Shown in pieces: positions 259 through 60,655 of a DNA stretch of 63,397 bases. The stretch is from a virus (taxonomy: Duplodnaviria > Caudoviricetes), in IMG/VR virus record IMGVR_UViG_3300036790_000296, positions 1 to 63,397 of that record. One strand, given 5' to 3'. The first letter of the stretch is position 1. Each line of letters opens with the position of its first letter. The position numbers and the translations under genes are program-made. The notes beneath the pieces are model-generated. The model saw nothing but the letters and a program-made list of their open reading frames with translations, was not told the DNA's origin and did not search any database.

Positions 259-594
259 TTACCGTGCGGTAATTTCCCGCTTGGCAATCTCACCGCGTCG
301 CGCACACTCGGCGAATTGGAAACTATCGAACTTGCTATTGTCCGTAGCGCACACTATGCCGATTTGCGCAATAACCGTTTCCATAACGGCTTTACGCACC
401 ATCGGATCAGGCACATCCTCACTAATACCAGCTTCAATTAGCTGGCATGCAGTTGCGAACAACTTGTAGTGTTTCTTTGTCATTTTCCCGCCTCTTTCAT
501 CATATGCCCAAGCCCAATACTCTTGGAGGCCACTCCAATCAAGGCCATTTACGTACGCGTTCACCAACCTCGTATGGTCGTCGAGGTTATCCAT
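259..594 (-). CDS. Hypothetical protein
   Basis: 111 aa ORF in co-oriented early gene string. Confidence 0.6.
   Translation of the reverse strand: MDNLDDHTRLVNAYVNGLDWSGLQEYWAWAYDERGGKMTKKHYKLFATACQLIEAGISEDVPDPMVRKAVMETVIAQIGIVCATDNSKFDSFQFAECARRGEIAKREITAR
298..326. repeat. 29-bp direct repeat, copy 1
   Basis: TCGCGCACACTCGGCGAATTGGAAACTAT, identical at 917-945. Confidence 0.95.
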
Positions 595-618
595 GAAACA
601 ACCACGCTTATAGGGTTG

Positions 619-906
619 TTACCCACAGTCACTATCCGTTGTACGTGGGTGAAGGTAACCCCAATGATCGCCTTCAATAGTTATGTCGAATTCCCGTTTC
701 AATCGCTCAAAAGCTTCATCCGACCATGTTGCCATGACCTGTGCTCTGTATGGCGCAGGTCCTCCTTCGCCAATCGTACCTTGGCAGCTTGCATGAGTGC
801 GAACGCCTGGGATCGTATTTAGGTATTGGACCATTTCAGCAATACCCTCGTCTATATCGGCCCACACTTGGACAGGAACGGTTCTGTGAAAATCATTTGG
901 CATCAA
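619..906 (-). CDS. Small protein with TYW3-like N-terminal motif
   Basis: IDEGIAEMVQYLN...GVRTHASCQG resembles the ID..I..L...IN...TTSSCSG start of TYW3/Taw3. Confidence 0.55.
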   Translation of the reverse strand: MMPNDFHRTVPVQVWADIDEGIAEMVQYLNTIPGVRTHASCQGTIGEGGPAPYRAQVMATWSDEAFERLKREFDITIEGDHWGYLHPRTTDSDCG

Positions 907-916
907 CGTCTACCCC

Positions 917-945
917 TCGCGCACACTCGGCGAATTGGAAACTAT
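917..945. repeat. 29-bp direct repeat, copy 2
   Basis: Identical to 298-326; covers the stop codon of 942..1133. Confidence 0.95.
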
Positions 946-1133
946 ACATGAAACAACCACAGTACAAACGCCAGAAAGGCTATTCCTAGCGTAACGCCTA
1001 GCGCAAACCAGTCCACTTTTGTGAACGCATACAGGTCACGTGGTTGCGCATAAGCATCGTCGTGGTATATGCTATACGTATCAGGCTTCCTGGGCTTGAC
1101 GCGTATAAAGCGCTCTTTCGTGTTGCTCGCCAT
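942..1133 (-). CDS. Small membrane protein
   Basis: AAGGAG SD; C-terminal hydrophobic helix. Confidence 0.65.
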   Translation of the reverse strand: MASNTKERFIRVKPRKPDTYSIYHDDAYAQPRDLYAFTKVDWFALGVTLGIAFLAFVLWLFHV

Positions 1134-1136
1134 TGT

Positions 1137-1328
1137 TTACTCCTTGTCTTTAGGAACACGGCAATATTTACATGTCCACGAAATTGCTAGGAGAAGGGCT
1201 ATAACCCATGTTCCCATAACCCATCCGCGCCATTCCGTAAGGTACACCGTGCCGCCAAGTATAGCCAGCGCCCATATAAGCGAGCATACTTCACAAATAG
1301 CAAGTGGAACTGGGCTCCAATTTTTCAT
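1137..1328 (-). CDS. Small two-TM membrane protein
   Basis: GGAG SD; two hydrophobic segments. Confidence 0.65.
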   Translation of the reverse strand: MKNWSPVPLAICEVCSLIWALAILGGTVYLTEWRGWVMGTWVIALLLAISWTCKYCRVPKDKE

Positions 1329-1421
1329 TTTACACTCCCATTCCTAGTATGTAGCCAATAACAAGCCCGAACAGAAACACAGCAACAACCGCATCCCAGC
1401 GAACGTAAGGTGCTGCACGCA

Positions 1422-1673
1422 TCATACCCTCGCTACGTTCTTATACACGGTAGCGAAATAGGGGGTGTCATCGGCGGTTTCACGCGCTTCACTTTGTGGT
1501 GAAGCATCGTACCCGCCATTGCTGCCGTCTTTAAGCGGCTTGTCCAACCCCATGCGATGGTGCAGCATGCAACGGGCAAACGTGAACGGATCGCTCTTGT
1601 CGGATGCCGCATAGTTCACAATACCGTCAAGCATACGCTTCTCGTTATTGGCTACAGCGTCAACGTTGCTCAT
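1422..1673 (-). CDS. Hypothetical protein
   Basis: ATGA overlap with upstream ORF; AGGTGG SD. Confidence 0.65.
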   Translation of the reverse strand: MSNVDAVANNEKRMLDGIVNYAASDKSDPFTFARCMLHHRMGLDKPLKDGSNGGYDASPQSEARETADDTPYFATVYKNVARV

Positions 1674-1873
1674 TTTCCACCTTTTGTTCGGGTATACGGG
1701 TTATGGTGCGCGTTAACACGGGCACTGGCACGTGCAAATGCTGTTGCGCCAGCTTGCAACGCTTTAGCGGTGCCACCATGAAACGTGTAGCTGTATGGCG
1801 GGTTAGCCAAAGCAATTGTTGGCCAAATCACAATTAACGTGGCGAGCCGAAACAACCTGAATTTTTCTTGCAT
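1670..1873 (-). CDS. Small protein with putative signal peptide
   Basis: AAGGAG SD; basic N-terminus, hydrophobic core, ALA cleavage motif. Confidence 0.55.
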   Translation of the reverse strand: MQEKFRLFRLATLIVIWPTIALANPPYSYTFHGGTAKALQAGATAFARASARVNAHHNPYTRTKGGK

Positions 1874-2082
1874 TGTGCCAGTCTCCTTCGTTGTTCGTAT
1901 TTCACCAGGTCCATGTGTTCGTGTTGCTGTGTATTGGCCGCAAACTCGGCTAACTGTGCCACCGTGAACAAACGCAAACGTATAAGCATTTCTGCTCTAC
2001 AACGAGACTTTGGCGAAAGCATGTCGAATAGGGGTATTGTGTTGTCAAGCATTATACAGCTTTCAGGGTAATTGCACGACAC
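1834..2082 (-). CDS. Hypothetical protein
   Basis: Co-oriented ORF filling the gap; start uncertain. Confidence 0.4.
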   Translation of the reverse strand: MSCNYPESCIMLDNTIPLFDMLSPKSRCRAEMLIRLRLFTVAQLAEFAANTQQHEHMDLVKYEQRRRLAQCKKNSGCFGSPR

Positions 2083-2124
2083 CGTGCCACCACGCTAGAT
2101 ACGCAATGGCACGGTAGCTTGCAA

Positions 2125-2541
2125 TTACTTCCGGCCAAGACCTAGAACTTTACGCCATTGTGGTTTGCCGGTTTTCCACCAATTGTCCATTGCGGCCACG
2201 GCCTGCTTGGGCGTAATACCGGAATAACTCTTACTGATATTCTTAGGGAAAAATAATTCACTGAAAACCCCATTTGTGCCGCCATCGTTCACATAGTATC
2301 TGGCAGCGTCATCCTTGATACCCATAATCAGGGCCATGGTGCCCCCGATACATGACACAGAGCCGCACCCTCTGGTTAAACAACCCCAATTCATGTTAAA
2401 CGTGTGCTTGTTGTTTATGTATTTCGTTCGGGTTGGATCGTGTTCCAACAACCCCATTGCCAGCATATTTCGTGTGGCAACGAACGCACCCATTTCTGCA
2501 AACGTGATGCCACGCCGTTCATGGAAGGATTTCTTAGTCAT
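2125..2541 (-). CDS. Hypothetical phage protein
   Basis: AAGGAG SD; FNMNW...CGSVSCIGG...LFFP...ITPKQA pattern. Confidence 0.75.
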   Translation of the reverse strand: MTKKSFHERRGITFAEMGAFVATRNMLAMGLLEHDPTRTKYINNKHTFNMNWGCLTRGCGSVSCIGGTMALIMGIKDDAARYYVNDGGTNGVFSELFFPKNISKSYSGITPKQAVAAMDNWWKTGKPQWRKVLGLGRK

Positions 2542-2568
2542 TGCGATTTCTCCTTGTTGAATAGGGTT

Positions 2569-3071
2569 TTATGCTATTTTCCACTTCCGCACTTTAGCCA
2601 TATTTTTCAAGTGCGCGACCAACAACAAGCTTTCCTTCCCCAAATCTGTACCCCCACGGGTTTTAGTCCAATGGGCAACAGCTTGGCGAAAGGTAAAATA
2701 ACGGCAGCCGGCGATTATCACTGTATTATTTTTTTGTCTTGTGTGCATATAAACGTGAACCCGTCTGAGCGAGATGCAAATATAGGCGACATGGAAACAC
2801 GCGCATTACCATAAACATGCGCATTACCATAAACATACGCATTACCATAAACATACGCATTACCATAAACATGCGCATTACCGGAAACACACGCATTACC
2901 GGAAACACACGCATTACCGGAAACACACGCATCGCCGGAAACATGCGCATTACTGGAAACACGCGCATCACCATAAACATACGCAGTATTGGCTACCCAT
3001 CCGCCGCCATTTGGGTGCCTATGAGCCGCAACCGGCCCAGCCCCAAAATCGAATGTGGTGGTTTTGGTCAT
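2569..3071 (-). CDS. Hexapeptide-repeat (left-handed beta-helix-like) protein, split by a frameshift at an A7 run
   Basis: V(Y/S)G(N/D)Ax repeats from 18-bp tandem units ~2797-2985; frame 0 stops at 2718, the -1 frame continues IIAGCRYFTFRQAVAHWTKTRGG to TAA at 2569. Confidence 0.75.
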
Positions 3072-3259
3072 TGGGTATCTCCTATCTCGGCCATATCCAC
3101 GCCGAGGTTGCGAGAGTACATAACGTGGCTTGCCTTGTCAAAAGCTTCGCGCGTGAAGCTATCGAACTCGGCAAGTATTTCATCCTGGGTCCAATCCTCG
3201 ATAACCGGGTATACGCGATCATCGCTGGTAAGCCCATCCGGGCTATCTACCTCACACAT
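3068..3259 (-). CDS. Small acidic hypothetical protein
   Basis: ATGA coupling to the downstream gene. Confidence 0.5.
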   Translation of the reverse strand: MCEVDSPDGLTSDDRVYPVIEDWTQDEILAEFDSFTREAFDKASHVMYSRNLGVDMAEIGDTQ

Positions 3260-3274
3260 TGGGTTTTTCTCGCG

Positions 3275-3469
3275 CTACCGTTGGTTTGCATCAAGAATTT
3301 GCTGCCAGAACCACCGATCTTCGGCAGTGCGTGCAACCGAACGTTGTTGCAGCGCATGTGCGATACGCTGTACGCGCAGCCACTGTCGATCACCTTTAAG
3401 GAAGGCATCAACCTTTTGCTGCATGGCATCGGCCCAAGTGTTAAGAGAAGATTTCATGGTATGCTCCAT
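3275..3469 (-). CDS. Small hypothetical protein
   Basis: Co-oriented ORF; GGAG before internal ATG. Confidence 0.55.
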   Translation of the reverse strand: MEHTMKSSLNTWADAMQQKVDAFLKGDRQWLRVQRIAHALQQRSVARTAEDRWFWQQILDANQR

Positions 3470-3717
3470 AGGGTTGTGGGTGAAACCGTGTTACCGTTGC
3501 GGTAACGTTACAGTAAGATTACCTTTGAACCGTAGTGAATGAAGCGGCGGCTGTAGCGGGAGCGGGCGAGTTCGCCGAAAAGCAGCGCTTCGGTGCAGAA
3601 CACGACCCATTTAGGGCCGTTCAGGGTTTTGCGGTATAGCGTCCAATGTTGGGGCATTGCGGCGTCCTTTCGGGTTTTGGAGCGGCGCGCACCGTGCCGC
3701 GCCCTCGCCGCGTCGCG

Positions 3718-3999
3718 CTACGTAACGCAATGGCGTCTTAGCATCTGCCGTGCCGCCGCAAGGCCTTTTGCACCCTGAATGGGGTTACGCCACGTACCAT
3801 TGTGCGTAACGGTGTCCTGCCCTTCCCCTGTCAATGTGTAGGCTATATTGTTGTGCATGGCAGCGCCAGTGGCGGCCCATTGGGTTATGAGGTTACTATT
3901 CACGTCATGGGGCAGCAAGGCGAGCAATTCTCTCCATGTCATGTAGGTTGAACTGTCATTCGTTTCAACCTTAACGAGTGTTTTTAGGCTCAGCGGCAT
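3718..3999 (-). CDS. First gene of leftward early arm, hypothetical
   Basis: GGAG SD, just downstream of a near-consensus promoter. Confidence 0.65.
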   Translation of the reverse strand: MPLSLKTLVKVETNDSSTYMTWRELLALLPHDVNSNLITQWAATGAAMHNNIAYTLTGEGQDTVTHNGTWRNPIQGAKGLAAARQMLRRHCVT

Positions 4000-4033
4000 A
4001 AAAATCTCCGTATACCAGTTATAGGGTCGGTTC

Positions 4034-4062
4034 TTTATAAAGCATTAGTGATTGGGTGTCAA
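4034..4062 (-). promoter_or_regulatory. Sigma70-type early promoter
   Basis: TTGACA-17 nt-TATAAA on the minus strand. Confidence 0.8.
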
Positions 4063-4079
4063 TGGAGGGGTCCGGGAGA

Positions 4080-4480
4080 ATTAGAATTAAAAATAGCGTA
4101 TATGCGGCATGGGCTTACAACCGTTTTACCGTTAATCGAGAAAAAGAAAACATAACTATACTATTCGACTATTAAGTAGTATACTTAGTATATATACTAT
4201 GTATGCCGTAGACCTGTTATCAGCCGTATACAAAGAAAGTATACCACTTAGTTGCCGTACAGGGGTCTCTTGTTTTTAAAACTGCGAATAAGATGCTTCG
4301 TGCCGATTTCACACGTAAAATCATACACTTATTCAAATGCTTATTCTTATTCAGCGTGTTTTAGAACCTTTCACTATGTTACCGATTGTTGCTAATTCAC
4401 TATGATTTCGTTAAAACGTATACCTGCTATGCGTTATTCGCATACTTGCATAGCTGCTGCGCGACGCGGCGAGAGTGTAG
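4080..4480. other. AT-rich non-coding strand-switch region; candidate origin or genome-end region
   Basis: Longest gene-free stretch; palindrome TAGTATATATACTA 4186-4199; short repeats CTTATTC x3 and TTCACTATG x2. Confidence 0.45.
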
Positions 4481-4516
4481 CCCGGCCAAAACGGCTCGGC
4501 CAAAAGGAGACTGAAA

Positions 4517-4870
4517 ATGACATTCGCACCTAAGACCAAAGTGAATACCGAAGGACAGACCAAAGCGGTATGGTACAAAATGGCCGTATTCGGTGAAAAC
4601 GGTAAAATCGTGCAACCTTGCCTGTTTCCGGCGGCGACTATCGCCAAGCTTGAAGCGGCCCATGCCCTTAAGGTCCAGGCTGCGCAATTGCAGAGCGAGG
4701 CGTTCAAAGACGTGCTCGCCAACGCCCAGCGGTATGCGTTCAATGGTGCACGCATCCTGCATGACGGTGATGCTCTGGTTGTCGGGGACAACTTCGGCGC
4801 TATCAGCGTCATGTCGGCTTCGCCCCGAGCTCGATCCGTCAAGGGCGCGGTGACGATGTTGAAGGGTTAG
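4517..4870 (+). CDS. Hypothetical protein
   Basis: AAGGAG SD; 117 aa; followed by two strong hairpins. Confidence 0.75.
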   Translation: MTFAPKTKVNTEGQTKAVWYKMAVFGENGKIVQPCLFPAATIAKLEAAHALKVQAAQLQSEAFKDVLANAQRYAFNGARILHDGDALVVGDNFGAISVMSASPRARSVKGAVTMLKG

Positions 4871-4880
4871 AGCTCGACCG

Positions 4881-4953
4881 GGGTGCGACGTAGGACCGTC
4901 GCACCCTGCTAGTTCCAGCCTGGGCGCGGGTATGACCCCCCGCCCAGGCTGGA
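4881..4953 (+). terminator. Tandem GC-rich hairpins (terminator or processing site)
   Basis: GGGTGCGACG/CGTCGCACCC and TCCAGCCTGGGCG/CGCCCAGGCTGGA; no clear U tract. Confidence 0.45.
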
Positions 4954-5139
4954 CAGGCGGCCTTTGTCGGCGCGAAGAAAACCCCCTTTAGGCATATATT
5001 TTGTAAAATTAAGGTTGTTAACTATTTGTTAGTAAATAGGTGGCACGGTAACACAGGTGCCTTCATCACCCTGCCTCCCGGCTACACCACCTGCGCGAAG
5101 CAGAGCCGGGAGGTAACACCCCTTAACCCCGGAGCCCAC

Positions 5140-5463
5140 ATGGCGAATAAAATATCTTTGGCGCTGGCTCTGTTCGTTATATTTGTGGTTGGGGTATTTG
5201 TAGACAAGTGCGCTGCCAATGCGGATGAAATCCTTACACCATTTGAAATTACCGCAACGGTAACGCTGCCGAGTGGGCAAACAAAAACATTTGAATACAC
5301 GCCTACCGGTACACGGCAATTATTCAAGAGCCAGGACGAGTGTATGAAGTTCATTGGCTCGGACGAGTTCGCCCCTATGTTGAAGTCTCTTGCGGATGTT
5401 AACCCCCACACCGCCATACGTGTAAACTGTGTTGCTGTCCCCGTTCCGGGGGATAGCATCTAA
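5140..5463 (+). CDS. Exported or membrane-anchored protein
   Basis: GGAG SD; hydrophobic N-terminus ending AANA; further Cys in the mature part. Confidence 0.7.
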   Translation: MANKISLALALFVIFVVGVFVDKCAANADEILTPFEITATVTLPSGQTKTFEYTPTGTRQLFKSQDECMKFIGSDEFAPMLKSLADVNPHTAIRVNCVAVPVPGDSI

Positions 5464-5469
5464 TCCAGC

Positions 5470-5646
5470 CGAACGGCAGTATGCCGTGACGCTTGAACGG
5501 GGACCCGGTAGCGTTTAAGCTACTGACAACGAGCGCCGGGTCCCCAACCATTCCTTCATAAAATCGTGCTCTAGTATGCCGGGGCTCAGTTTGCTCTATT
5601 GCGTACTTGAGGTACGCGTTGTTGGGGGTATGAGCGGACTGAGCCC
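5470..5646 (+). ncRNA. Candidate structured small RNA(s)
   Basis: Stems GGGGACCCGG/CCGGGTCCCC and GGGCTCAGTTTGCTC/GAGCGGACTGAGCCC, each enclosing a short internal hairpin; intergenic. Confidence 0.35.
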
Positions 5647-5712
5647 TACTTAATTTTCTATTTACTTATCTAAAGCACTCTGTTATGGTATTCCCAACCC
5701 CAGGGGCTTGCC

Positions 5713-6336
5713 ATGAGCGCAATTTTAACGGCCGATGTTGATAGTATCGCTATTCCGGTGTACCTTGCCGAAATTGCAGCACGCCTCGCTAACGAGGGTA
5801 TACCGGTTTCAGCTATCGCAAGGTCATTGGCACTCCCTGCCGAAGATATACGAGAAGCATTAGAAATGTCACTTGGCCAGGGTGTGATTGTGGAAATCCC
5901 TCCCGGTGACTGGCCGCCCACTGGAAAACGTGCTGATCGCCTCCCCCTGCATAATAATAATAATAATAATAAACCCACTGATACGGATACGCTGCTTGCT
6001 TGCCAGCGTGCATTCAAGCTTACCCGGCTTATGGCGGGGTTTCTGGTTGTGTTGTTGAAACGCGATGAAGTTGAAAAGAGCACATTCCATAACGTGATCG
6101 AGAACCAGCGCGCCACGCGCAGTACCCGCCCTAACGACCTTGAGACTACTGACCCCAAGATGGTGGATGTTATTATCTGCAAGCTGCGCGAACGCCTACG
6201 GCCATTCGGGCTTAAAATTGACACCATGTGGGGGCATGGATATTTTATGAGCATGGAGATGCGTATGAAGGCCCACGAAATGCTTAAGTCCACCCCACTT
6301 GGAGAGGAAGCACCGCATGACATCACCGCTCATTAG
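5713..6336 (+). CDS. Transcription regulator: N-terminal HTH-like segment plus CtrA-like OmpR/PhoB winged helix, no receiver domain
   Basis: DPKMVDVIICKLRERL...IDTMWGHGY matches the CtrA C-terminus (KIIDVFICKLRKKL...IETVWGRGY). Confidence 0.8.
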   Translation: MSAILTADVDSIAIPVYLAEIAARLANEGIPVSAIARSLALPAEDIREALEMSLGQGVIVEIPPGDWPPTGKRADRLPLHNNNNNNKPTDTDTLLACQRAFKLTRLMAGFLVVLLKRDEVEKSTFHNVIENQRATRSTRPNDLETTDPKMVDVIICKLRERLRPFGLKIDTMWGHGYFMSMEMRMKAHEMLKSTPLGEEAPHDITAH

Positions 6337-6682
6337 AGAGGACGTTATTAAAAATACGCTGTCGTTGCCGGTGGTTACGGAGCATATTGACCAGTTAAAC
6401 ATGGCAAATATGCTAGCTATTCTTGACGGGTACGACCGGAAATTGCTGCGCGACGAGTTTTCTAAAATTCTCAGTACGGGGTTTCAGTTTTTCGACGCAT
6501 CGGCACGGCTCGATCTTATTTTTAGCCTTAAGAAACTGTTTGAAGCTGAAGCGCCACAACAGAAATTATTAGATGAAGCTGCGGTAGGATTAACCCAACG
6601 TGCCGACCATTGGCGTAAACGTCTGTATGAGATCATGGAGGTAGTGTCACAATGTCCGGGGGACCAGGACACTATTAATTAG
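6317..6682 (+). CDS. Hypothetical helical protein
   Basis: GAGG SD; overlaps the end of the regulator gene. Confidence 0.65.
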   Translation: MTSPLIREDVIKNTLSLPVVTEHIDQLNMANMLAILDGYDRKLLRDEFSKILSTGFQFFDASARLDLIFSLKKLFEAEAPQQKLLDEAAVGLTQRADHWRKRLYEIMEVVSQCPGDQDTIN

Positions 6683-6753
6683 GGTATACTCATATAAGGT
6701 GACTTGAGTGGCTGCTCGATACTTGACGGTGGACAAGGTAGGGTGGTGGGATT

Positions 6754-7203
6754 GTGACCACAATAGACTTGAGCAGGGGCGCTATGAACGCGTCTGTAAG
6801 GCCGATGGAAAATAACGGGCTGTCATATTGGGCACAGTATTTTTTTGCTGTAGGTGGTACAATTGGCACCCTTACGGGTATTTTATCCCCAATAATTGGC
6901 TTTTGTGCAGGTGTTTTAATTGTTATTTGGACCCTGGTTCAACTTTCAGAAAGTCGCACCGTACGAAACACAATACAAGCCAGGCGACTGAAAAAACTTG
7001 TAAAGTTGCGCGCCAAAGCTGTTGCGTTGGAGTTGACCATGCGCAATAACAGTACGGGATTGCGTGGTTTGCACCGTGCCAATGCGGTGCATCTTGCGGC
7101 TGAACAGGCTTCAACAGACCTTACAAAGTCTGATTTGGTAGCCGAGGAAGCTGAGAAAACGCGCAGCGCGCTTGAAAAGAGCCTTGCTAATCTAAAAGAT
7201 TAA
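6754..7203 (+). CDS. Membrane protein with cytoplasmic coiled coil (holin-like or antiholin-like)
   Basis: Hydrophobic segments followed by a basic stretch; start uncertain. Confidence 0.55.
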   Translation: MTTIDLSRGAMNASVRPMENNGLSYWAQYFFAVGGTIGTLTGILSPIIGFCAGVLIVIWTLVQLSESRTVRNTIQARRLKKLVKLRAKAVALELTMRNNSTGLRGLHRANAVHLAAEQASTDLTKSDLVAEEAEKTRSALEKSLANLKD

Positions 7204-7208
7204 AGTAT

Positions 7209-12942: not shown

Positions 12943-12945
12943 TTC

Positions 12946-53924: not shown

Positions 53925-53990
53925 GGGAACTCCTGTGTTTGTAAACGCAGTATACCATGGAATAGCGTAAAAAGTACAGTAACTTATATG

Positions 53991-54659
53991 TTATCGGTGA
54001 GATTTACCGTGAAACGGGCACGACATAACCGGGCACCATTTATAGCAGAGCTTGCCCGGTTTAGGCGGATACGTCATTGTAACAGCCGCGTTTTCTAGCT
54101 CTTTGATACGCGGCAACAGCCCCACCCACCCCCCAGCTACATCGGCGCGTGTATAAATTTCAGGCGTCGAGCAGTCATCTTTCAACCACACGTATTCAGA
54201 ACGCACCACTTTGACGTTGGGAAAATGTGCGAATATACATTGTGCCATCAACATCAATTGCACGCTATCGACCAGAACTTTTCCAGTTTTCCAATCGAGA
54301 ATAAGCGCCACAGGGCCGTCGATACGCACCACATCCCCAATACCGCGATACCACGCATTATCGGCGAACCAGCTAGTAGGCTGAAAATCTTTTGTTATAG
54401 CATATTTCTTCTCTACCTGTAGCTCTCCTGGTCCGTCCAATACCCTATCCACCCATTTCTGGTAATCCCTCATAGTATCGGGGAGGGGGGTTTTGTTTTT
54501 TATGGCAGCAGCAAGCGCACCATGCACTTCGTTACCCCACACCAGCGCTTCGCCGCCTTCGTCCGAATAGTTCTTAGCTAAGTCTACTTCATAGTGCCGC
54601 TTTGGGCATGTGTCGTAGTTTTTTAGCTTAGAAAATGACCACGACCATGATTTGGTCAT
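53991..54659 (-). CDS. PD-(D/E)XK Cas4-like exonuclease
   Basis: SFSKL...CP, GNEVH, D...DWKTGK, Q, C-terminal CxxxC....C. Confidence 0.88.
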   Translation of the reverse strand: MTKSWSWSFSKLKNYDTCPKRHYEVDLAKNYSDEGGEALVWGNEVHGALAAAIKNKTPLPDTMRDYQKWVDRVLDGPGELQVEKKYAITKDFQPTSWFADNAWYRGIGDVVRIDGPVALILDWKTGKVLVDSVQLMLMAQCIFAHFPNVKVVRSEYVWLKDDCSTPEIYTRADVAGGWVGLLPRIKELENAAVTMTYPPKPGKLCYKWCPVMSCPFHGKSHR

Positions 54660-54687
54660 ATGAAAATACCCCCTACATTGTGTTCAG

Positions 54688-55014
54688 TTATACTCGCTCC
54701 GCTTGACGCGCCAACAGTTCCTCGGCTTCCAGTTCTTCTTCCAGCAGCGCAAATGAACGCCACACCAGTTTACCCGAATGCCGTTGCCCATCGCTGTCCC
54801 GGGTCCCATGTTCCAGCAGGTGCCGCGCTATACAATCCGCATGGTCGGTTGATTTTTCTCGTGCCCAATGCAACGGTTGCCCGGGGTTATGCTGGTCGTT
54901 CCCAGCTTTGGATACCCGAGCGACTTCCGCCATAGCACGTGGGAAGTATTTCATAACACCAGAATATATGGGGGTAGCTTTCCGCTCCGCAGCGTCATCG
55001 GGAAGTATGCTCAT
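54688..55014 (-). CDS. dATP/dGTP diphosphohydrolase-like (DUF5664-type)
   Basis: YFP.A..EVA.VS..GN.QH....LHW...KS.DH.D...RH...DSDG..H. Confidence 0.75.
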   Translation of the reverse strand: MSILPDDAAERKATPIYSGVMKYFPRAMAEVARVSKAGNDQHNPGQPLHWAREKSTDHADCIARHLLEHGTRDSDGQRHSGKLVWRSFALLEEELEAEELLARQAERV

Positions 55015-55016
55015 AG

Positions 55017-55361
55017 CTATATCTCCTTTAGGCCCAATGCGCGCGCCAGTGCACGCTCTGCGGCTGCGCCCTTGCTACCTTCCCATCCGGGCAATAACAC
55101 TATGGCTTCGGCTTTTAGGGCGATCCACCGCATATTATCAGCTAGGGCCTCGCGCAAATTAAACCCATGCTGTTCAGTAGCCAGCGCTTCATCGCCAGTC
55201 AGATTGTCCTTGGATATATCAGTGCCGTGGTCCTCGTTATCGCGTTCTGCGGGACTGAATACCTCATGCCCCTCTGCACGCAATTTAGCCGCAACAGCAG
55301 CAAATGCCGGGAAGTTAAAATTCTTGCACCCACGCATCGGTCCTGCGATATATATTTTCAT
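55017..55361 (-). CDS. DUF4406 / nucleoside deoxyribosyltransferase-fold protein
   Basis: IYIAGPMRG..NFNFPAF...LPGWEGSKGA..E. Confidence 0.8.
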   Translation of the reverse strand: MKIYIAGPMRGCKNFNFPAFAAVAAKLRAEGHEVFSPAERDNEDHGTDISKDNLTGDEALATEQHGFNLREALADNMRWIALKAEAIVLLPGWEGSKGAAAERALARALGLKEI

Positions 55362-55795
55362 TTGAGTTTCTCCATCAGGTCTTCGGGGTTAAAGAACACA
55401 CGGTCTGCGAATTGATACATTACATCCCACCGTGTTTCGGGGTCATCGCATGGATGGTCAAACAAAACATACCCTATTTTATCCTTCCCAAGCGCCCAGC
55501 CAAACTCTAGGTGGCCGGATTTACCGGCCGGTAACACCAAAATCACCGTATCACATCGCTCCAAATGGTGCAAGTCAAACTCAAATACATGCCGTGCTGC
55601 GTACCCTTCTAGCGCCTGTTGGTAGTTGTTACCGCGCTCCTGCTCGTACCGTTTCCACTCGTCATCCGCATGAGGCCCGGCTGCGTGCCAGTCGTCAAAA
55701 ACTTCGCATCCAATTTCCCGTAGCCTGGCAGCCAGAGCAGGTACAGCGGCGTTTCTGAGCGACCCAATTAGATAAACAACCGGATTATTTTTCAT
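55358..55795 (-). CDS. Nucleoside 2-deoxyribosyltransferase-like protein
   Basis: VYLIGS...FEFD...L..CD...LVLPAGKSGHLE.GW..G. Confidence 0.75.
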   Translation of the reverse strand: MKNNPVVYLIGSLRNAAVPALAARLREIGCEVFDDWHAAGPHADDEWKRYEQERGNNYQQALEGYAARHVFEFDLHHLERCDTVILVLPAGKSGHLEFGWALGKDKIGYVLFDHPCDDPETRWDVMYQFADRVFFNPEDLMEKLK

Positions 55796-55937
55796 GACGC
55801 AAACAGGAACGCAAGTGCGCCGTATCCTATTGCCCACGCTAAAAACGCGACGCCTGCGGCTCCATTGTTTTGGCTAAACCAACATAGCGACGATGCCACA
55901 CATAGAATGCCAATCATTGACATGAAAATTGACTGTA

Positions 55938-56414
55938 TCATTTACTGTTCTCCGGTGGTTTATCATAAAGCGACCGGGCGTAGGCCAGCGGCGGGCTTAC
56001 CCACTTGTTGGTGCGTGCGTCCCATCTCTGCCCGAGATGCTTGGCTTCGGTTGCAGCCGCTTTGGCTTTAGCCTTCGCTTCACGCGATACCTTAAGTGCG
56101 TTCGCCTTGTCCTCTTTGCCTGTTGTTAGCTCGGCTATAACCCGAATATCATTTTCGGTGAGCGGGTACATTCGGCGGCACGAAGGCACTGGGGGCAAAA
56201 CCGGCTCACGCACGGTTTCATGCTCACCTGAATGAGGCATTGCCATCACCCCAGCGTCCTCGCGCCACTCGTTTTCGCCGATATCACGGCGAAGAAATTC
56301 CGGAATATCCTCGAATGGTTCTGGCATTACCGGCGCGGTAATTTCCGGCGCGGCGTCGCCGTCACACTTATCCTGCGCGCCCGCGCACGCGTTTATGGTT
56401 TCATCTTCTGTCAT
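55938..56414 (-). CDS. Hypothetical protein
   Basis: GGAG SD; ATGA overlap with the polymerase stop; DIPEFLRR motif. Confidence 0.65.
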   Translation of the reverse strand: MTEDETINACAGAQDKCDGDAAPEITAPVMPEPFEDIPEFLRRDIGENEWREDAGVMAMPHSGEHETVREPVLPPVPSCRRMYPLTENDIRVIAELTTGKEDKANALKVSREAKAKAKAAATEAKHLGQRWDARTNKWVSPPLAYARSLYDKPPENSK

Positions 56415-58306
56415 TTCGCGTCTCCATATGTTTGACCGGAACCCACATCTGCTTTTAGCGGTAAAGAAGGCGCCCATGAGGGACGACGCGTCATTTCAGT
56501 ATGGATTATTTGCTTGGCGTTGTCAACATCCTCGTCGGGTACGATGAACGCCAACTCGTCATGGGATTGTAGAGCAAACCTGTAGCCTCGATCAGATAAC
56601 CTTAGAGCCACGTTCATCACAACTATACGGGCAAGAAACTGCACTATGTTTTCCAAGAACTTGCTGCCGTACATAGTGTGTTTCCGCCCTCCATACGTGT
56701 AGGTAAGACCGCCATCGTTTTCACGTTTAGGCTCGGCATACTGCATCATTAGTCCGTTGGGGCCGCGTACGAACCCATGCCCTATAACACATGGGCCGCA
56801 AGTTACCGGCGCGGAAAGCCCCAACCATGCGGTATCGAGTACATTCTCTAACTTCCTCCACGTGTGCACAATAGGATAATTAACATTGCGGTACACGCTA
56901 ACTGATTTCTTGGCCAAATCCAGCGTCCACACTTTCTTAAGCTCGCGCACGTCCATCCCAAGCGCACGTGCCATACGTATAACCATGATATAAAACTTGG
57001 GGGGACCAGCCCCGTACCCTAGACCAAGCACACCCGATTTACCTATAAACCGCTGTAAACTGCTAACGCGTTCCAGCAGCACCCCAAATATAGCCATTGC
57101 GAGCAATTTGTATGGGTCTTCGTTATTGGTGAACGCTCGCAGTAACACATCCGCGCCGCAAATAAGCGCCGATATACGCGCTTCAATTTGCCCAAGGTCC
57201 GCAACAATTACCTTATGGCCTGGAGGCGCGCGTAGGCTATTTCGCAATTTAGACTTTTGCGGACCACGCCCCGATGGCATGTTTTGCATATTCATTTTCC
57301 AGTCGCCGCTTAGTCTATGCGTATGGGTTCCACCGAACCGTATGGGAATAGGCATGGAAAATGGGGTTAAATTGCGCCACCTTAACGATGCAACGCGTAG
57401 CAGCGTCATGCCGCGCGTTTCTTCAATGGTGCTTTTGTGGCCTAGTCTCGCAGCCGCCAATGCTTGCACGCGGCTATCTTCATGCTCAGATAACTCAGCC
57501 ATGAACTCGTCTGTCTTGGCAAACGCCGGAAGTAGTTTCCCTGTTATGGGGGATGTTTTCATTTCCACGTCTACGCCAAAATCCTCTAGGGCTTTCTGGA
57601 ATTGCGAATTGGACATTACCAAGTTGCGGTCGCTAAGGCCCGCATCCGTAAGTAGTTTAGCTTTTTCCAGCTTCAATTCTTCCAAATGTGAAACCAGCAT
57701 AGGCCGGTCTATAATGAACTTAGGCTCTACGGCGCACCGTAGCACCAAGTCCATCACACGGCGTTCCGCAGGGGGGAAATTCTGGCCTAGTATCCTAAAC
57801 ACACCTTCGCATAGTCTATTATCCTGAAGACAGTAATCACTGAAGGCTCCCCACAAAACCGGGTCATTACGTATTTGGTCGCGCCGCATGCCCTTCACGT
57901 TGGCAATAGCGTGCCCTTTATGGCCTATTTTCAGATACTCTGCCACCTTGGCGAGGCTCAATCTTGGGAGTTTATGCGCCAGCATTGTGCGGGCAATTCC
58001 CAGCGCATCAACCATGCGAACCGGGACAAAATCGTATATGTAAGACAAAATACAGTTGTCGAAAAGTGCGTTGAATGTTACCGTGGTGGTAACAGCCGGG
58101 TCAATTTTTGACAGGTACGCTGGAATATCGGGGCCGTCTATAATTTCATGCGGGCCGTCATCCAGCTTGGCCGCCATCATGGAAACTTCAAACCTGTGGT
58201 CTAAAATGTATTCAGCCGGGGTCATCTTGCGGAGCGAGTACACATCATCGTAATACGACTCAAAATCAAGTATAAGTAAATGCTGTTGCGTCATTACGGT
58301 AATCAC
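56411..58306 (-). CDS. polA: Family A DNA polymerase with 3'-5' exonuclease
   Basis: ExoI DFE, ExoII FNALFD, ExoIII YCLQD; motif A DLGQIEAR, motif B R...K...LGLGYG, motif C HDE. Confidence 0.95.
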   Translation of the reverse strand: MITVMTQQHLLILDFESYYDDVYSLRKMTPAEYILDHRFEVSMMAAKLDDGPHEIIDGPDIPAYLSKIDPAVTTTVTFNALFDNCILSYIYDFVPVRMVDALGIARTMLAHKLPRLSLAKVAEYLKIGHKGHAIANVKGMRRDQIRNDPVLWGAFSDYCLQDNRLCEGVFRILGQNFPPAERRVMDLVLRCAVEPKFIIDRPMLVSHLEELKLEKAKLLTDAGLSDRNLVMSNSQFQKALEDFGVDVEMKTSPITGKLLPAFAKTDEFMAELSEHEDSRVQALAAARLGHKSTIEETRGMTLLRVASLRWRNLTPFSMPIPIRFGGTHTHRLSGDWKMNMQNMPSGRGPQKSKLRNSLRAPPGHKVIVADLGQIEARISALICGADVLLRAFTNNEDPYKLLAMAIFGVLLERVSSLQRFIGKSGVLGLGYGAGPPKFYIMVIRMARALGMDVRELKKVWTLDLAKKSVSVYRNVNYPIVHTWRKLENVLDTAWLGLSAPVTCGPCVIGHGFVRGPNGLMMQYAEPKRENDGGLTYTYGGRKHTMYGSKFLENIVQFLARIVVMNVALRLSDRGYRFALQSHDELAFIVPDEDVDNAKQIIHTEMTRRPSWAPSLPLKADVGSGQTYGDAK

Positions 58307-58635
58307 CGCTTATCAACACTATTAGCCACAGCGGCTATCTGGTTGTAAATAGTGCGCGCTTGCAACGTAGCTTGCCAAGCATCCTCTAGCTCGTTGCCTT
58401 GTTGGAACGTTCGCGCGCGCTCTATAACGTATCGTTCGGCAAAAGACCGGAAGCGGCTGTGTGGTATATCGCCCGTTTGTCCTGCTATGGGGACGGGGAT
58501 GCTAAAACCGCCACTACCGCCGCCACCGCCGCCACCATGCGCCGCGAAACCGCCGCCGCCACCATGCGCCGTGACACCGCCGTAAACGCTCGGGGGTACA
58601 AATTGTTGTGCAGCGGCGGTTGTCTTTGGCATCAA
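58303..58635 (-). CDS. Hypothetical protein with Gly tract
   Basis: Co-oriented; GTGA coupling to polA. Confidence 0.6.
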   Translation of the reverse strand: MMPKTTAAAQQFVPPSVYGGVTAHGGGGGFAAHGGGGGGGSGGFSIPVPIAGQTGDIPHSRFRSFAERYVIERARTFQQGNELEDAWQATLQARTIYNQIAAVANSVDKR

Positions 58636-58655
58636 TTCACCGTGAGTTGGTGCTT

Positions 58656-58684
58656 TTGGTTAAACTACCCCGTAGTTTAACCAA
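58656..58684. terminator. Perfect 13-bp inverted repeat (terminator, processing site or operator)
   Basis: TTGGTTAAACTAC-CCC-GTAGTTTAACCAA, intergenic. Confidence 0.45.
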
Positions 58685-58685
58685 G

Positions 58686-59405
58686 TTATTGCACGATGTC
58701 AAGCTTTTTATCAGGGAACAAATCGAAAGTGTTAGAGTCGAATTCCCCAGAGAATGAAACTATCACCGGAGAACCGATTGCGTTTTTGTTTTCTGGCGTC
58801 ATCAAAGCTGATGCAATTGTGCCGGAAGTATCTCGAATACGCGTTAACCATTCAGATATCCCAACTGGCTCCTTATTACACCTTTTGCCGTTTTCTTGGT
58901 GTAGCTTCACATCAGAGCACAAACTTAGCGCTGTGGGCCAATAATATCGCATTGCCCCAGCAGTTGCATTACTGGCGAGCCAATTCAGCACTGCGCGAAC
59001 ATCGTTAAACTTTTGGCACACTTCCATCATTGAACAGAACGTACGTAGTATAGGGGTAGAAAGTGTACCTTGTTGCAGAACGTTACTTGCAGGGGGTAGA
59101 ATCTCTAGTTCATTAAATATTATTTCAATACTCACTTTGTGCGTAATATCTATGTTAAACACATATCTACCCTGGCTTGGTTCGTCATACACTATCCCAT
59201 ATGCGGCGCTACATCGGGATATAATATCTGGCGCAAACATGCATTCAACCAAATCCCGCATGGTGAAACCACACTCCAAGGTGGCCTCCATCACGCGTTT
59301 TTCTAGCTTATCAATCATTTTCTTCGCCGCGTATAAACTGTTGCTATCTAGTGCGGATGCCATGGGAATGGCCGTAACAAGTCTATTTCGGGTTCGTCGT
59401 TTCAT
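58686..59405 (-). CDS. Hypothetical protein
   Basis: 239 aa; ATGA coupling to the VWA gene. Confidence 0.7.
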   Translation of the reverse strand: MKRRTRNRLVTAIPMASALDSNSLYAAKKMIDKLEKRVMEATLECGFTMRDLVECMFAPDIISRCSAAYGIVYDEPSQGRYVFNIDITHKVSIEIIFNELEILPPASNVLQQGTLSTPILRTFCSMMEVCQKFNDVRAVLNWLASNATAGAMRYYWPTALSLCSDVKLHQENGKRCNKEPVGISEWLTRIRDTSGTIASALMTPENKNAIGSPVIVSFSGEFDSNTFDLFPDKKLDIVQ

Positions 59406-60655
59406 TTCCGTATCCTCACTACATCCCCAAAGGGATATTTTGTATCAGCTACGCTGCACCATATTACGGGATAAGGCGGGGGTGTGGGCGGGAACGTAAC
59501 ATACCCATCCGTGAACCCCACGAACATATCAGGGGGCTCGTGTGCATGAGCGGCTATCCAGTCTATAACCGGAATAACCGCAGTCCCGCCGCGCCCGCCC
59601 ACACCCGCATGCTTGATACGTTGCAAGTCACTGGCTTCCTCAATTTCGTCAATGCGGTGTATCTTACTGTCACACCACAATACAGTAAGGCGCTTAGGGC
59701 GCACATCTTCCACTATGCCTCCCAACTCTGCAAGATACGAACAAAGCTCTCCCTGCCCGATAGAACCGCTCGTATCTCCCCACACCACAACCCATCCCGC
59801 ACCGTGGCCACTACAACTGGGCAGATACAGGTCCCGAACAATAAATCGTCTATCTGGACGACGCCAGTTATATGAGCCACTTCCCACCCGTCTGTTGAAT
59901 ATACCCCGGATATGTTCGGACCATGGGATTTCGGGCTGTAGGATTTCTTGAAACATACGTTGCAGGGCACCTGCCAGCTTGCCCTGCGCTCTTATCTGTT
60001 CAATTGTTTGTGCGGCAGCTACTTCCACAGCCCATTGCTGTTGATTGCGCTGCGCGGCTGCATTCCCTGGCTGTTGCCCGGTTGATTTACCGGGCGGTAA
60101 CAGCGTGTCAAAATCGCCACCCGGCAACTCACCATCGTCTTGCTTTTTCTCGTAAACCTTCTTGTACACATCCAACAAGCTATCGTTAGCACCAGCTATC
60201 TTGCGATCCAACAAACAGTCTTTAGGCGGTTTACCTATTTTGCTGTCCGCAAGTAGTGGGTTAATCCGGTAGTCCATAGATTTTTGCATTACCTCCATAT
60301 CAAAAGGCAATGTTGTACCGTCGTGCATCGGCACGCTGCCGCTTCGCATACACCTATGCAATAGCTCTACATCACCGTACACGTTGTGCACGATTTCATG
60401 TGCGGCAATAAACGTGCGTTCTTGTAACGGGTATTCAAAATACGCATCGGGATTAACGATAACGTTTTTCCCGTCCGTAGCCGCCACAGGTACTTCCCTT
60501 GACATAATGGCAATATGCTTGCCTTCGTTATTGGCAAGCAGCCTATACCATATAGACCGGAACCCTGGTGCGGTCCATGCCATCATGGAGGTAGTATCCC
60601 CCCATTTTTGTATTTGAGCGGGGGTTAGCTCCATACTTTCCATTGGCTCACTCAT
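59402..60655 (-). CDS. Metallopeptidase (HExxH) + VWA protein, DUF2201-type
   Basis: AATDG, HEIVH, MIDAS DTSGS, GGT, FTDG. Confidence 0.88.
   Translation of the reverse strand: MSEPMESMELTPAQIQKWGDTTSMMAWTAPGFRSIWYRLLANNEGKHIAIMSREVPVAATDGKNVIVNPDAYFEYPLQERTFIAAHEIVHNVYGDVELLHRCMRSGSVPMHDGTTLPFDMEVMQKSMDYRINPLLADSKIGKPPKDCLLDRKIAGANDSLLDVYKKVYEKKQDDGELPGGDFDTLLPPGKSTGQQPGNAAAQRNQQQWAVEVAAAQTIEQIRAQGKLAGALQRMFQEILQPEIPWSEHIRGIFNRRVGSGSYNWRRPDRRFIVRDLYLPSCSGHGAGWVVVWGDTSGSIGQGELCSYLAELGGIVEDVRPKRLTVLWCDSKIHRIDEIEEASDLQRIKHAGVGGRGGTAVIPVIDWIAAHAHEPPDMFVGFTDGYVTFPPTPPPYPVIWCSVADTKYPFGDVVRIRK

Follow-up and report, generated by a model that had tools for sequence, protein, structure and literature searches.

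What is a short palindrome doing when it recurs along an entire phage chromosome, mostly inside genes, and is present in some relatives and absent from others? The question is raised by a soil phage whose complete 63.4-kb genome (IMGVR_UViG_3300036790_000296) we analysed over all of its 63,397 bases, hereafter the window. Two spacer classes, TTACCG-N3-CGGTAA and TTACCG-N2-CGGTAA, each occur there as seven perfect copies against 0.01 expected from shuffled sequence (100 dinucleotide shuffles for the N3 class), a several-hundred-fold enrichment over chance. With up to one mismatch allowed, the N3 class comprises 13 copies (0.12 expected) and the N2 class 8 (0.19 expected), giving an array of 21 sites, 14 perfect and seven with one mismatch. 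A preliminary description, made by eye, had listed these same 21 positions and called them far above chance; every coordinate was correct, and so was the verdict on chance. The sites, to which no strand is assigned, are as follows.

259 to 272: N2 perfect, TTACCG-TG-CGGTAA
3491 to 3505: N3 perfect, near the 3' end of ORF 2817-3542
5249 to 5263: N3 perfect
10494 to 10508: N3 perfect, divergent region between ORF 9883-10539 (minus strand) and the portal gene; relatives G004 and G011 carry copies at the equivalent place
15590 to 15604: N3, one mismatch
17036 to 17049: N2 perfect, GT2/TPR gene, peptide LPPGN; position kept in relative G002
20067 to 20080: N2 perfect, UDP-galactopyranose mutase gene
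22605 to 22619: N3, one mismatch
25093 to 25107: N3 perfect, ORF 24935-25336
30667 to 30681: N3, one mismatch
34669 to 34682: N2 perfect, internal virion protein gene, peptide LYRTV; same peptide from different codons in N3-only and motif-free relatives
39162 to 39176: N3 perfect, peptide VTATV; copy at the same codons in nine genomes
45707 to 45720: N2, one mismatch, convergent junction, 22 nt past the end of the plus-strand arm
48601 to 48615: N3, one mismatch, primase-helicase gene
50396 to 50410: N3 perfect, intergenic, 20 nt upstream of ORF 49330-50376 (minus strand)
52900 to 52913: N2 perfect, SNF2 helicase gene; position kept in G002
55521 to 55534: N2 perfect
56327 to 56341: N3 perfect
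56803 to 56817: N3, one mismatch, DNA polymerase gene
58078 to 58092: N3, one mismatch, DNA polymerase gene; copy with at most one mismatch at the same codons in G002, G003 and G004, and a related stretch at this position in G001; a perfect copy is impossible here without an amino-acid change
60087 to 60100: N2 perfect, DUF2201/VWA gene; position kept in G002

At spacings from -6 to 40, the two hexamers paired in the window at none besides N2 and N3. Many copies had been said to extend to a flanking G...C, which holds for either side taken singly (C follows 8 of the 14 perfect copies and G precedes 5), but both occur together at only 2 of 14. No flanking sequence common to the 14 perfect copies was found. 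Eleven of these 14 lie within ORFs, in various frames and, as had been claimed, within unlike peptides (LPPGN, LYRTV, VTATV). The further claim that selection acts on DNA rather than protein was borne out by codon-preserving shuffling: 1000 within-gene synonymous shuffles, covering 48,078 of the 63,397 bases, averaged 0.21 perfect copies and never exceeded 3, against the 11 real coding copies, a number reached in none of the 1000. Motif-bearing genomes encode the residues T-F-T-A-T-V as ACG TTT ACC GCC ACG GTA, whereas the motif-free relative G012 encodes the same residues with TTC and GTC codons. There is next to no probability that the array simply reflects codon usage, a recurring peptide or a small mobile element: collagen-like Gly-X-Y genes of relatives do make spurious palindromes (ACCGG and GGGCC), but the synonymous shuffles refute this explanation, the sites fall in different frames and peptides, flanks are not shared, and motif-free relatives encode identical peptides with other codons. 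REP/MITE-like mobile palindromes, which are intergenic and share their flanks, were rejected on the same intragenic placement and unshared flanks, and on the retention of orthologous positions.

When sought in related phages, the motif proved to be one member of a lineage-wide family, (G)TTAC-N6-8-GTAA(C), with inner bases and spacing that vary by clade. Each half-site consists of (G)TTAC plus two lineage-specific bases, and half-site centres lie 10-12 bp apart, or about one helical turn. Rhizobium phage RHph_TM27A, a distant relative of the window phage, carries 34 copies of TTACC-N5/6-GGTAA, and ten IMG/VR genomes carry 12-22 perfect copies each. The palindromes are under selection at the DNA level and are conserved across the family. 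Between lineages both arms change together, as in the clade variants TTACAG, TTACTG, TTACGG, TTACCT/CC and TTACTT, whereas within a genome the two arms vary independently and without compensatory changes: across 824 sites from 60 sources, position 5 deviated in one arm 209 times against 17 compensatory cases, and double deviations numbered 24 against 20 expected under arm independence. Arms that are independent within genomes and change jointly between lineages, with centres 10-12 bp apart, fit a symmetric dimer on duplex DNA; a rigid dimer fits less well with the mixture, within the single genome of the window phage, of spacers differing by one base (N2 and N3).

The same arm statistics bear on whether the palindromes instead act as hairpins in single-stranded DNA or RNA, as primase priming signals, N4-type promoters or RNA processing or translation signals. 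Variable spacers would be tolerated by a stem of 6 bp closing a loop of 2-4 nt, the phage encodes a primase-polymerase/helicase, and the 3' arm in RHph_TM27A is often also a Shine-Dalgarno-like GAGGTAA, which the 5' arm could mask. We nevertheless regard hairpins as highly improbable, given the lack of covariation between arms within genomes, the inward continuation of TM27A-type symmetry that leaves a 2-nt centre, the position of the window's G-T 'wobble' variants on the non-transcribed strand, and the presence of the primase in four of the five motif-free relatives as well. Rfam returned no match, and PHROGs gave no family, hence no RNA polymerase, for the longest ORFs, of 1732 aa and 862 aa. 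N4-type hairpin promoters were specifically rejected, as they depend on arm base-pairing and the double deviations stand close to their expectation under independence.

Which protein, then, might read the sites? Array presence was compared over 17 whole genomes, 12 of them motif-bearing, with 16-46 matches to TTAC-N6-8-GTAA (0.75-2.6 expected), and five motif-free, with 0-3 matches (0.7-1.7 expected). Profile HMMs found four genes, encoding P235, an ATPase, P150 and a DUF2201/VWA protein, in all 12 motif-bearing genomes, and detected no homologue of any of them in the five motif-free genomes even at E<=10. These genes, together with two that accompany the module in the window-type clade only, are as follows.

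58303 to 58635, minus strand: 110-aa protein, window-type clade only
58686 to 59405, minus strand: 239-aa fast-evolving protein, window-type clade only
59402 to 60673, minus strand: protein with DUF2201_N (HExxH metallopeptidase-like) and VWA domains
61098 to 61550, minus strand: P150, small and acidic, conserved over a core of ~75 aa
61547 to 62755, minus strand: AAA+ ATPase, phrog_1297 (PHROG label 'ATPase', E 4e-39)
62784 to 63395, minus strand: P235, orphan basic all-alpha protein and candidate motif reader; gene cut at the window end

The array is thus all-or-none and tied exactly to the four-gene set in 17/17 whole genomes. Motif-free genomes are interspersed on a TerL+portal+MCP tree, whose starred branches force at least three changes, and all three independent pairs on that tree point in the same direction, with a sign-test p of 0.25 because only three such pairs exist. 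Among IMG/VR loci of at least 10 kb with a DUF2201 homologue, 60/63 have at least four sites at more than five times expectation. A limit to the co-occurrence evidence is fragment G016 (70% complete), which carries 12 sites with DUF2201 absent from the sequenced part. The system is accessory, with close relatives lacking both genes and sites; in one relative without it, an ornithine/arginine decarboxylase gene occupies the corresponding location. The presence/absence pattern is identical for the four co-inherited genes and does not distinguish them. It does sort the three binders nominated in the preliminary description: P235, at the window end, co-occurs with the motif, the gene at 5713-6336 is also found in all five motif-free relatives, and no homologue of the gene at 4517-4870 was detected among the 16 relatives compared.

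This co-inheritance also bears on a reader supplied by the host, for which the copies would be decoys or recruitment sites for a host regulator, or a Chi-like nuclease-taming signal made bidirectional by palindromy. Chi-type signals are short words that are dispersed, over-represented and roughly even; the dispersed, over-represented words seen here resemble them, and motif variants could follow different hosts. We consider a host reader very unlikely all the same, since the array tracks the phage gene set without exception, structurally close phages differ all-or-none, and half-sites invariably come as pairs a fixed distance apart, an arrangement that a polar nuclease signal would not need. 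The dimer-binding array inferred in the preliminary description agrees with the anatomy of the sites, but the host-factor decoy offered as one version of it is disfavoured because the array follows the phage genes. A Chi-like word in the strict sense (short, asymmetric, in one orientation) was rejected on the fixed inverted pairs and the link to phage genes, and a restriction-modification target, with its fixed spacer and avoided or chance frequency, on the strong enrichment and two spacer lengths.

P235 orthologues are ~230-257 aa long, with a pI computed as 9.0-9.4 for two window-type orthologues (G001 and G002) and as 7.0 for TM27A. The AF2 model has a pLDDT of 91.6, and the predicted homodimer scored 0.50 (best of three controls, 0.00), a mark reached in calibration by 20/30 solved proteins with same-chain pairs and 1/23 single-chain ones; homodimer runs showed at least 33% contact agreement and a partner pLDDT of at least 82. 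Where the inner bases of the motif changed, in three lineages only, P235 identity fell 0.05-0.09 under the prediction based on the ATPase and DUF2201 proteins, with a control residual of -0.01. No known DNA-binding fold was matched: Foldseek against the PDB was empty at E<=0.001, and VIA-align gave just a generic C-terminal helical hairpin at Z<7. P235 is a weakly founded candidate for the reader, and its invariant H, D, K and N residues (K58 H59 G60, D65, D84, K86, N143 and others) could equally mark an enzyme.

So many invariant polar residues are indeed more typical of an enzyme, and the palindromes might be its substrate, with a module enzyme, possibly P235, nicking or chemically modifying phage DNA at each copy. 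Site-specific nicks occur in T5-like phages and are dispensable in T5, and the system described here is dispensable among relatives. We find this unlikely, because an enzyme acting on a palindrome would nick or cut each strand, at points 10-12 bp apart, and the chromosome would break; fold and family searches linked P235 to neither nucleases nor transferases, and a mere modification target would not be expected to show the enrichment and spacing observed.

For the ATPase, Pfam returned no match and a PDB profile search only weak P-loop matches; AAA_5 occurs in 23-80% of the members of its Atlas look-alike clusters, some of which are named MoxR, and an AAA_5/MoxR-like identity is a lead drawn from these look-alikes only. 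The 59402-60673 product matches DUF2201 (VWA-like; E 5.7e-22) and DUF2201_N (E 1.7e-21) in Pfam, and its AF2 model aligned to VWA domains with a TM by target of ~0.5, VWA folds being among the structural matches. An AAA_5-like ATPase (at the level of a lead) encoded close to a VWA-domain protein recalls the known MoxR AAA+/VWA pairs, which remodel or mature protein complexes; no description linking MoxR/VWA to a DNA motif array was found in the literature searched.

The placement of the sites speaks to what a bound complex might do. Copies avoid each other: gaps shorter than 500 bp make up 1.7% of the total where 15.4% would be expected, the gap CV falls under the random mean in 11/11 genomes (p<0.05 in 5/11), and the median gap is ~2.4 kb, whilst spacing in RHph_TM27A is irregular (CV 0.93). 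Most window copies lie deep inside genes in both arms, late structural genes included, and the early/replication arm has about twice the site density of the other. The divergent terminase/portal junction and the convergent arm junction hold copies in both the window phage and RHph_TM27A. In the latter, 11/34 sites are fully intergenic (random mean 2.8) and 7/34 end within 12 nt of a start codon, just upstream (random mean 0.8), an enrichment that suits a regulatory role better than anchoring. Between positions 44000 and 63397, promoter-like matches were fewer than in shuffles (17 against 24.3) and not enriched near sites; one site had been reported to overlap a promoter -10, and two overlaps were found in that interval, but both are weak, with a 9-of-12 consensus.

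Bound dimers could therefore be imagined as roadblocks that stop or pause host RNA polymerase in either direction, shutting off or insulating transcription units, including at divergent and convergent junctions. The RHph_TM27A enrichments, the junction copies shared by both phages and the denser early arm would suit such a role, and dispersed repressor sites that stop elongation are described for Cluster A mycobacteriophages (PMC9283540). These stoperators, e.g. of L5 and relatives, resemble the window sites in recurring as tens of short copies genome-wide and in both arms and, reportedly, in being read by a phage-encoded sequence-specific protein whose specificity varies between related phages (PMC9283540, PMC6550527). 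They are asymmetric and bound by the monomeric immunity repressor of temperate phages (PMC9283540). In contrast, the window site is a perfect inverted repeat with many intragenic copies, and the genes co-inherited with it encode an AAA+ ATPase, a VWA protein and two orphans; scans of ~50 ORFs against Pfam or PHROGs revealed no immunity repressor and no lysogeny, integration or partition gene. Operators usually cluster, whereas window-type sites avoid each other, and most copies sit deep in genes with synonymous selection at conserved codons, away from any excess of promoter-like matches. A roadblock role is possible, though we doubt it.

Two other kinds of system offer partial parallels. T7 and T4 plug-in factors likewise combine genes acting in trans with dispersed cis sites, and such a plug-in would be gained or lost together with its matching sites. 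T7 RNA polymerase promoters, T4 MotA boxes and T4 late promoters have an orientation, stand upstream of genes and lack palindromic symmetry, unlike the symmetric, mostly intragenic window sites without promoter association. The sites of matS/MatP, SlmA, Noc and parS/ParB are dimer-bound single palindromes with 5-7 bp arms, scattered over a large DNA region as here, and serve chromosome handling. All of them are features of cellular chromosomes or plasmids, with proteins of known families, and sites here are about tenfold denser or more; MatP, SlmA, Noc and ParB families were undetected in the module proteins with Pfam, NCBIfam and PADLOC.

The explanation that we favour, with a confidence that falls a little short of even, is that the palindromes are duplex cis sites for a phage-encoded symmetric dimer, with P235 as leading candidate, working with the AAA+/VWA pair. 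Each palindrome would be bound as double-stranded DNA by the dimer, presumably of P235, which is inherited with the AAA+ ATPase, P150 and the DUF2201 metallopeptidase-like/VWA protein. Selection has placed single, non-clustered copies in intergenic DNA and at synonymous codon positions over the whole chromosome, and the sites would act as dispersed anchor or loading points for an AAA+/VWA machine that handles the phage chromosome, rather than as promoter operators. We infer all three elements of this explanation: the binding of a protein, P235 as the binder, and the action of the bound complex.

A more specific and distinctly speculative proposal is that the array is a tag of self-identity, evenly dispersed palindromes in the phage's own chromosome being read by its P235/AAA+/VWA machine to tell phage from host DNA. 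If so, the tag could keep phage DNA safe during an attack on DNA that the phage itself drives, or could instead nucleate a protective or organising coat against host defences, and relatives without the system would rely on other means. With such a tag, phage chromosomes would have a cis/trans system of a new kind.

Seven perfect copies of the palindrome TTACCG-N3-CGGTAA and seven of TTACCG-N2-CGGTAA were found in the window, each against 0.01 expected from dinucleotide shuffles. A pattern search placed all 14 exactly where the preliminary description had put them, and allowing one mismatch recovered the seven imperfect copies it had also claimed, whilst no other spacing of facing hexamers, from -6 to 40, occurred in the window. 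Codon-preserving shuffles (n = 1000) averaged 0.21 perfect copies and never exceeded 3, against 11 within the shuffled genes, and the copies do lie in different frames and encode different peptides, LPPGN, LYRTV and VTATV among them, as had been described. In a promoter and terminator scan of positions 44000-63397, the sites were without association to promoter-like matches.

The record that carries these sites is used whole and is rated 100% complete; among the sequencing runs listed, two contained it, both soil metagenomes. Megablast of positions 1-20000 returned no DNA-level relatives in the phage collection, and at the protein level the portal shares 56% identity with its counterpart in Rhizobium phage RHph_TM27A. 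ORF-based gene calls gave the following layout:

7209-8666, minus strand: large terminase
10636-12942, plus strand: portal
12946-21727, plus strand: glycan/collagen island
23798-24808, plus strand: major capsid protein
up to 45685, plus strand: tail and internal virion proteins
46265-49309, minus strand: primase-polymerase/DUF927 helicase
51444-53024, minus strand: SNF2 helicase
52991-53350, minus strand: VRR-NUC nuclease
53991-54659, minus strand: RecB-like exonuclease
54688-55837, minus strand: nucleotide-pool genes
56411-58306, minus strand: DNA polymerase I

No tRNAs (ARAGORN) and no Rfam families at gathering thresholds were found in the window. The island of ~9 kb between the portal and the scaffold/capsid genes encodes a sulfotransferase, three collagen-like proteins, a GT2 glycosyltransferase with TPR repeats, an NAD-dependent epimerase/dehydratase and a UDP-galactopyranose mutase; it is absent from RHph_TM27A and may be a module for glycan modification of the virion or the host surface. 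The three consecutive nucleotide-pool genes (PF18909, the dATP/dGTP diphosphohydrolase N-terminal domain; DUF4406; and a nucleoside deoxyribosyltransferase-like gene) hint at dNTP-pool editing or at base modification of the DNA, and the PF18909 and DUF4406 genes also occur in relatives that lack the motif. The RHph_TM27A coding sequence at 42248-45331 (L006), annotated as a 'putative integrase', is homologous to the primase-polymerase/DUF927 helicase of the window, and that label is probably wrong; no integrase was seen.

Relatives were drawn from the best 80 of 566 IMG/VR matches to the portal, and 15 whole genomes from among them were compared. Eight relatives carry 12-22 perfect copies each of TTACCG-N3-CGGTAA, and the window and relative G002 use both the N2 and N3 spacers. 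Relative G006 has the variant CGTTACAG-N3/4-CTGTAACG, RHph_TM27A has 34 copies of TTACC-N5/6-GGTAA (consensus G-TTACC-TY-NN-RA-GGTAA-C), and loci found via the DUF2201 gene, described below, added the variants TTACTG, TTACGG, TTACCC and TTACTT; the single DUF2201 protein of RHph_TM27A as query for related loci returned one locus, as did a scan of genome contigs (on a 58-kb MAG contig). All members of this family keep (G)TTAC ... GTAA(C) separated by 6-8 bases, half-site centres lie 10-12 bp apart, and differences from lineage to lineage alter both arms jointly. Two further patterns, ACCGG-N5-CCGGT and GGGCC-N4/5-GGCCC, were rejected as members of the family, being collagen-like Gly-X-Y repeats; such pseudo-palindromes, found in loci L012, L046, L025, L048 and L070 of relatives, can be confused with a dispersed motif.

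The motif is maintained by selection on the DNA, including within coding sequence, as the preliminary description had argued, and codon shuffles and orthologous codons agree on this point. In five genomes, the residues T-F-T-A-T-V of an internal virion protein gene are written ACG TTT ACC GCC ACG GTA; G012, a relative without the array, has identical residues, but uses TTC and GTC codons. The N2 copy encoding LYRTV is confined to the two genomes with N2 spacers, the others using different codons for that peptide. A one-mismatch copy in the polymerase gene lies at the same codons in the window, G002, G003 and G004, with a related stretch in G001, and perfection at this site would cost an amino-acid change. 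The most widely shared site positions are common to nine and to seven genomes, and certain positions are common across motif variants, with many others unshared. A test on identical peptides (6-residue identity rule) left ten comparisons, too few for statistics, in which the site was kept in 7/9 motif-type genomes and absent in the single motif-free one.

Generic sites, TTAC-N6-8-GTAA, separate the whole genomes into 12 with 16-46 matches (0.75-2.6 expected) and five, G009 and G012-G015, with 0-3 (0.7-1.7 expected). When every ORF of the window was compared by tblastn with the 16 other genomes, the gene-presence table identified 58303-63395 on the minus strand as the block that tracks the motif. 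Its four core genes were assigned by profile HMM co-occurrence, and two more genes go with them in one clade:

62784-63395, truncated at the window end, minus strand: P235, an orphan basic protein
61547-62755, minus strand: AAA+ ATPase
61098-61550, minus strand: P150, a small acidic protein
59402-60673, minus strand: DUF2201_N and VWA domain protein
58686-59405 and 58303-58635, minus strand: accompanying proteins, with the module in the window-type clade only

Profile HMMs detected the four proteins in 12/12 motif-bearing genomes, RHph_TM27A included, and in none of the five motif-free genomes even at E ≤ 10. On a tree of terminase, portal and major capsid protein, motif-free genomes are scattered among motif-bearing ones (G009 pairs with G001, and G015 with G006). 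With close structural relatives so interspersed, site presence follows a gene block located elsewhere in the genome, and the system is accessory, close relatives being without it. The starred branches of this tree force at least three state changes, and all three independent pairs agree in direction, a sign test (p = 0.25) falling short of significance because there are only three. Among IMG/VR loci ≥10 kb with a DUF2201 homologue, 60/63 had at least four sites at >5× expectation (exceptions L206, L211 and L212); of the 63, three are duplicates and about a dozen overlap genomes in the whole-genome tally. The link to the gene set is based on 17 whole genomes and three independent contrasts, plus non-independent loci. 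The whole-genome tally excludes two incomplete fragments: G016 (70% complete) has 12 sites and no DUF2201 gene in the available part, and G017 (68% complete) has neither.

Among the readers that had been suggested for the motif, the gene at 5713-6336 has a distribution that does not follow it, being present in 16/16 relatives including the five motif-free genomes; its match to Trans_reg_C is weak and below the Pfam cut-off. Another suggested reader, a 'junction-spanning gene' (62784-63395, our P235), does co-occur with the motif. Joining the ends of the record into a circle does not restore its full frame: only six codons, none of them Met, are gained ahead of the point at which conserved similarity starts. 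The P235 gene is truncated by the record end, and since the join fails to restore its N-terminal codons, the record rated 100% complete probably misses a short stretch or is no exact circle. Two highly basic small ORFs within the module (60657-60896 and 60889-61101) were rejected as readers, having no homologue in any relative.

Roughly at the place that the module takes in genomes with the motif, upstream of DNA polymerase, the motif-free G014 (L127:3665-5919) encodes an ornithine/DAP/arginine decarboxylase and a weakly ATP-grasp-like gene, and G015 has a GP88-family protein at the corresponding place. G012 (L119-L120) carries three arrays of ~36-37 bp units, at ~10.7-11.6, 13.7-14.2 and 20.4-21.6 kb, in which a constant 9-base core (67 copies) is bordered by variable sequence and by another constant block.

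Two predictions follow from a homodimer bound to double-stranded DNA: arms that vary independently within genomes, and arms that switch jointly between lineages. Were the sites hairpins, one-arm changes should be rare and compensated. Across 824 TTAC-N6-8-GTAA sites from 60 non-redundant sources, one-arm changes were common: 209 at half-site position 5 (17 compensatory and 7 non-complementary double changes; 24 doubles against 20 expected for independent arms) and 277 at position 6 (37 and 49; 86 against 61). Within a genome the arms are thus two independently degenerate half-sites, yet they switch jointly between lineages. The symmetry of RHph_TM27A-type sites runs inward to leave two central bases, which a hairpin could hardly fit, and we consider hairpins the less likely reading. 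The best-supported reading is that a symmetric dimer, encoded by the phage and either part of the four-gene set or working with it, would bind the array as duplex sites; sites read by a host factor, or serving as substrates for a nick or modification, are less likely.

P235 is the leading candidate for this reader. Its orthologues are 230-257 aa long, the homologue in RHph_TM27A being CDS 18372-19100, and none of the 258 homologues in its family is annotated or has a Pfam domain. An AF2 model (pLDDT 91.6) is all-alpha and had no match in the PDB by Foldseek at E ≤ 0.001; a few sigma-factor-like rows at probability 0.05-0.08 were not trusted, a wide VIA-align search matched the C-terminal helical hairpin alone (Z < 7), and the only two matches in BFVD belong to the same orphan family. 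Prediction as a homodimer scored 0.50 (best of three controls 0.00), reaching a mark that was reached by 20/30 proteins solved as one-chain pairs and 1/23 solved as single chains, with contact agreement of at least 33% and partner pLDDT of at least 82 across runs; this supports a predicted symmetric dimer, and speaks to dimerisation, not to DNA binding. Computed pI is 9.0-9.4 in two window-type orthologues (G001, G002) vs 7.0 in RHph_TM27A. In a tree of P235 the deepest division matches the two spacing classes without exception, and in the three lineages with changed inner bases (AG, TG, GG) P235 identity lies 0.05-0.09 under the prediction from ATPase and DUF2201 (control residual -0.01). Faster divergence of P235 where inner bases changed is suggestive, as it concerns three events.

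PDB profile searches with alignments of P235, DUF2201 and the ATPase found nothing significant, and no PADLOC or NCBIfam family was found among eight proteins. The ATPase is AAA_5/MoxR-like by Atlas look-alikes only, P150 is acidic, and the DUF2201 protein combines an HExxH motif with a VWA domain; its top Foldseek rows, to Ro60, were rejected (TM ~0.25, rmsd ~22 Å), the VWA domain alone being accepted.

Copies avoid one another. Over 238 gaps in 11 genomes (sites with ≤1 mismatch), the median gap was 2.4 kb, with 1.7% of gaps <500 bp vs 15.4% expected and 11% <1 kb vs 28% expected; the coefficient of variation was under the random mean in all 11 genomes, individually significant in five, and long gaps showed no clear depletion. 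As copies are single and mutually avoiding, cover late and early genes alike and are not tied to promoters in the region scanned, we favour a role in which bound complexes would serve the AAA+/VWA machine as scattered points of anchoring or loading. A stoperator-like role in transcription is a serious rival, kept in play by RHph_TM27A, which departs from the spacing rule (CV 0.93): its early region is richer in sites, and of the 34, 11 are intergenic (random mean 2.8) and 7 have their end no more than 12 nt from a start codon (random mean 0.8). In the RHph_TM27A clade, the 3′ arm (GAGGTAA or GGAGGTAA) can lie 2-5 nt before start codons, resembling a ribosome-binding site (8333-8348, 15513-15528, 20437-20452, 33750-33765 and 57374-57389), and sites in this clade may also affect translation.

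Functional analogies to an array of this kind are offered by bacterial matS, SBS, NBS and parS arrays, and by phage polymerase/promoter sets. Cluster A mycobacteriophages have the nearest known system, the stoperator array, which likewise has dispersed sites that are phage-read, as they putatively are here, but differs in symmetry, protein family and phage lifestyle (PMC9283540). At the level of abstracts, the literature found on phage DUF2201, RHph_TM27A and evenly spaced palindromic phage sites describes neither the motif, nor the P235 family, nor any connection of an AAA+/VWA pair to a DNA motif; supplements could report RHph motifs. We rate the array as a dispersed set of cis sites with a candidate phage-encoded reader, a variant within known systems, and give a modest chance to a novel kind of chromosome self-marking system.

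In conclusion, a 12-base signal has been pushed into coding sequence by selection, and vanishes entirely wherever four uncharacterised genes are gone, providing a clean, testable cis/trans system in a large and nearly unstudied group of soil phages with at least one cultured member, Rhizobium phage RHph_TM27A, whose host is Rhizobium phaseoli (N831). Tracing how motif and gene content vary together over metagenomic genomes can point to a candidate reader for an orphan DNA motif, and here offers a first functional handle on the unannotated P235 family, on the phage AAA+/VWA pair, and on the ways in which phage chromosomes are marked or organised by the phages themselves.
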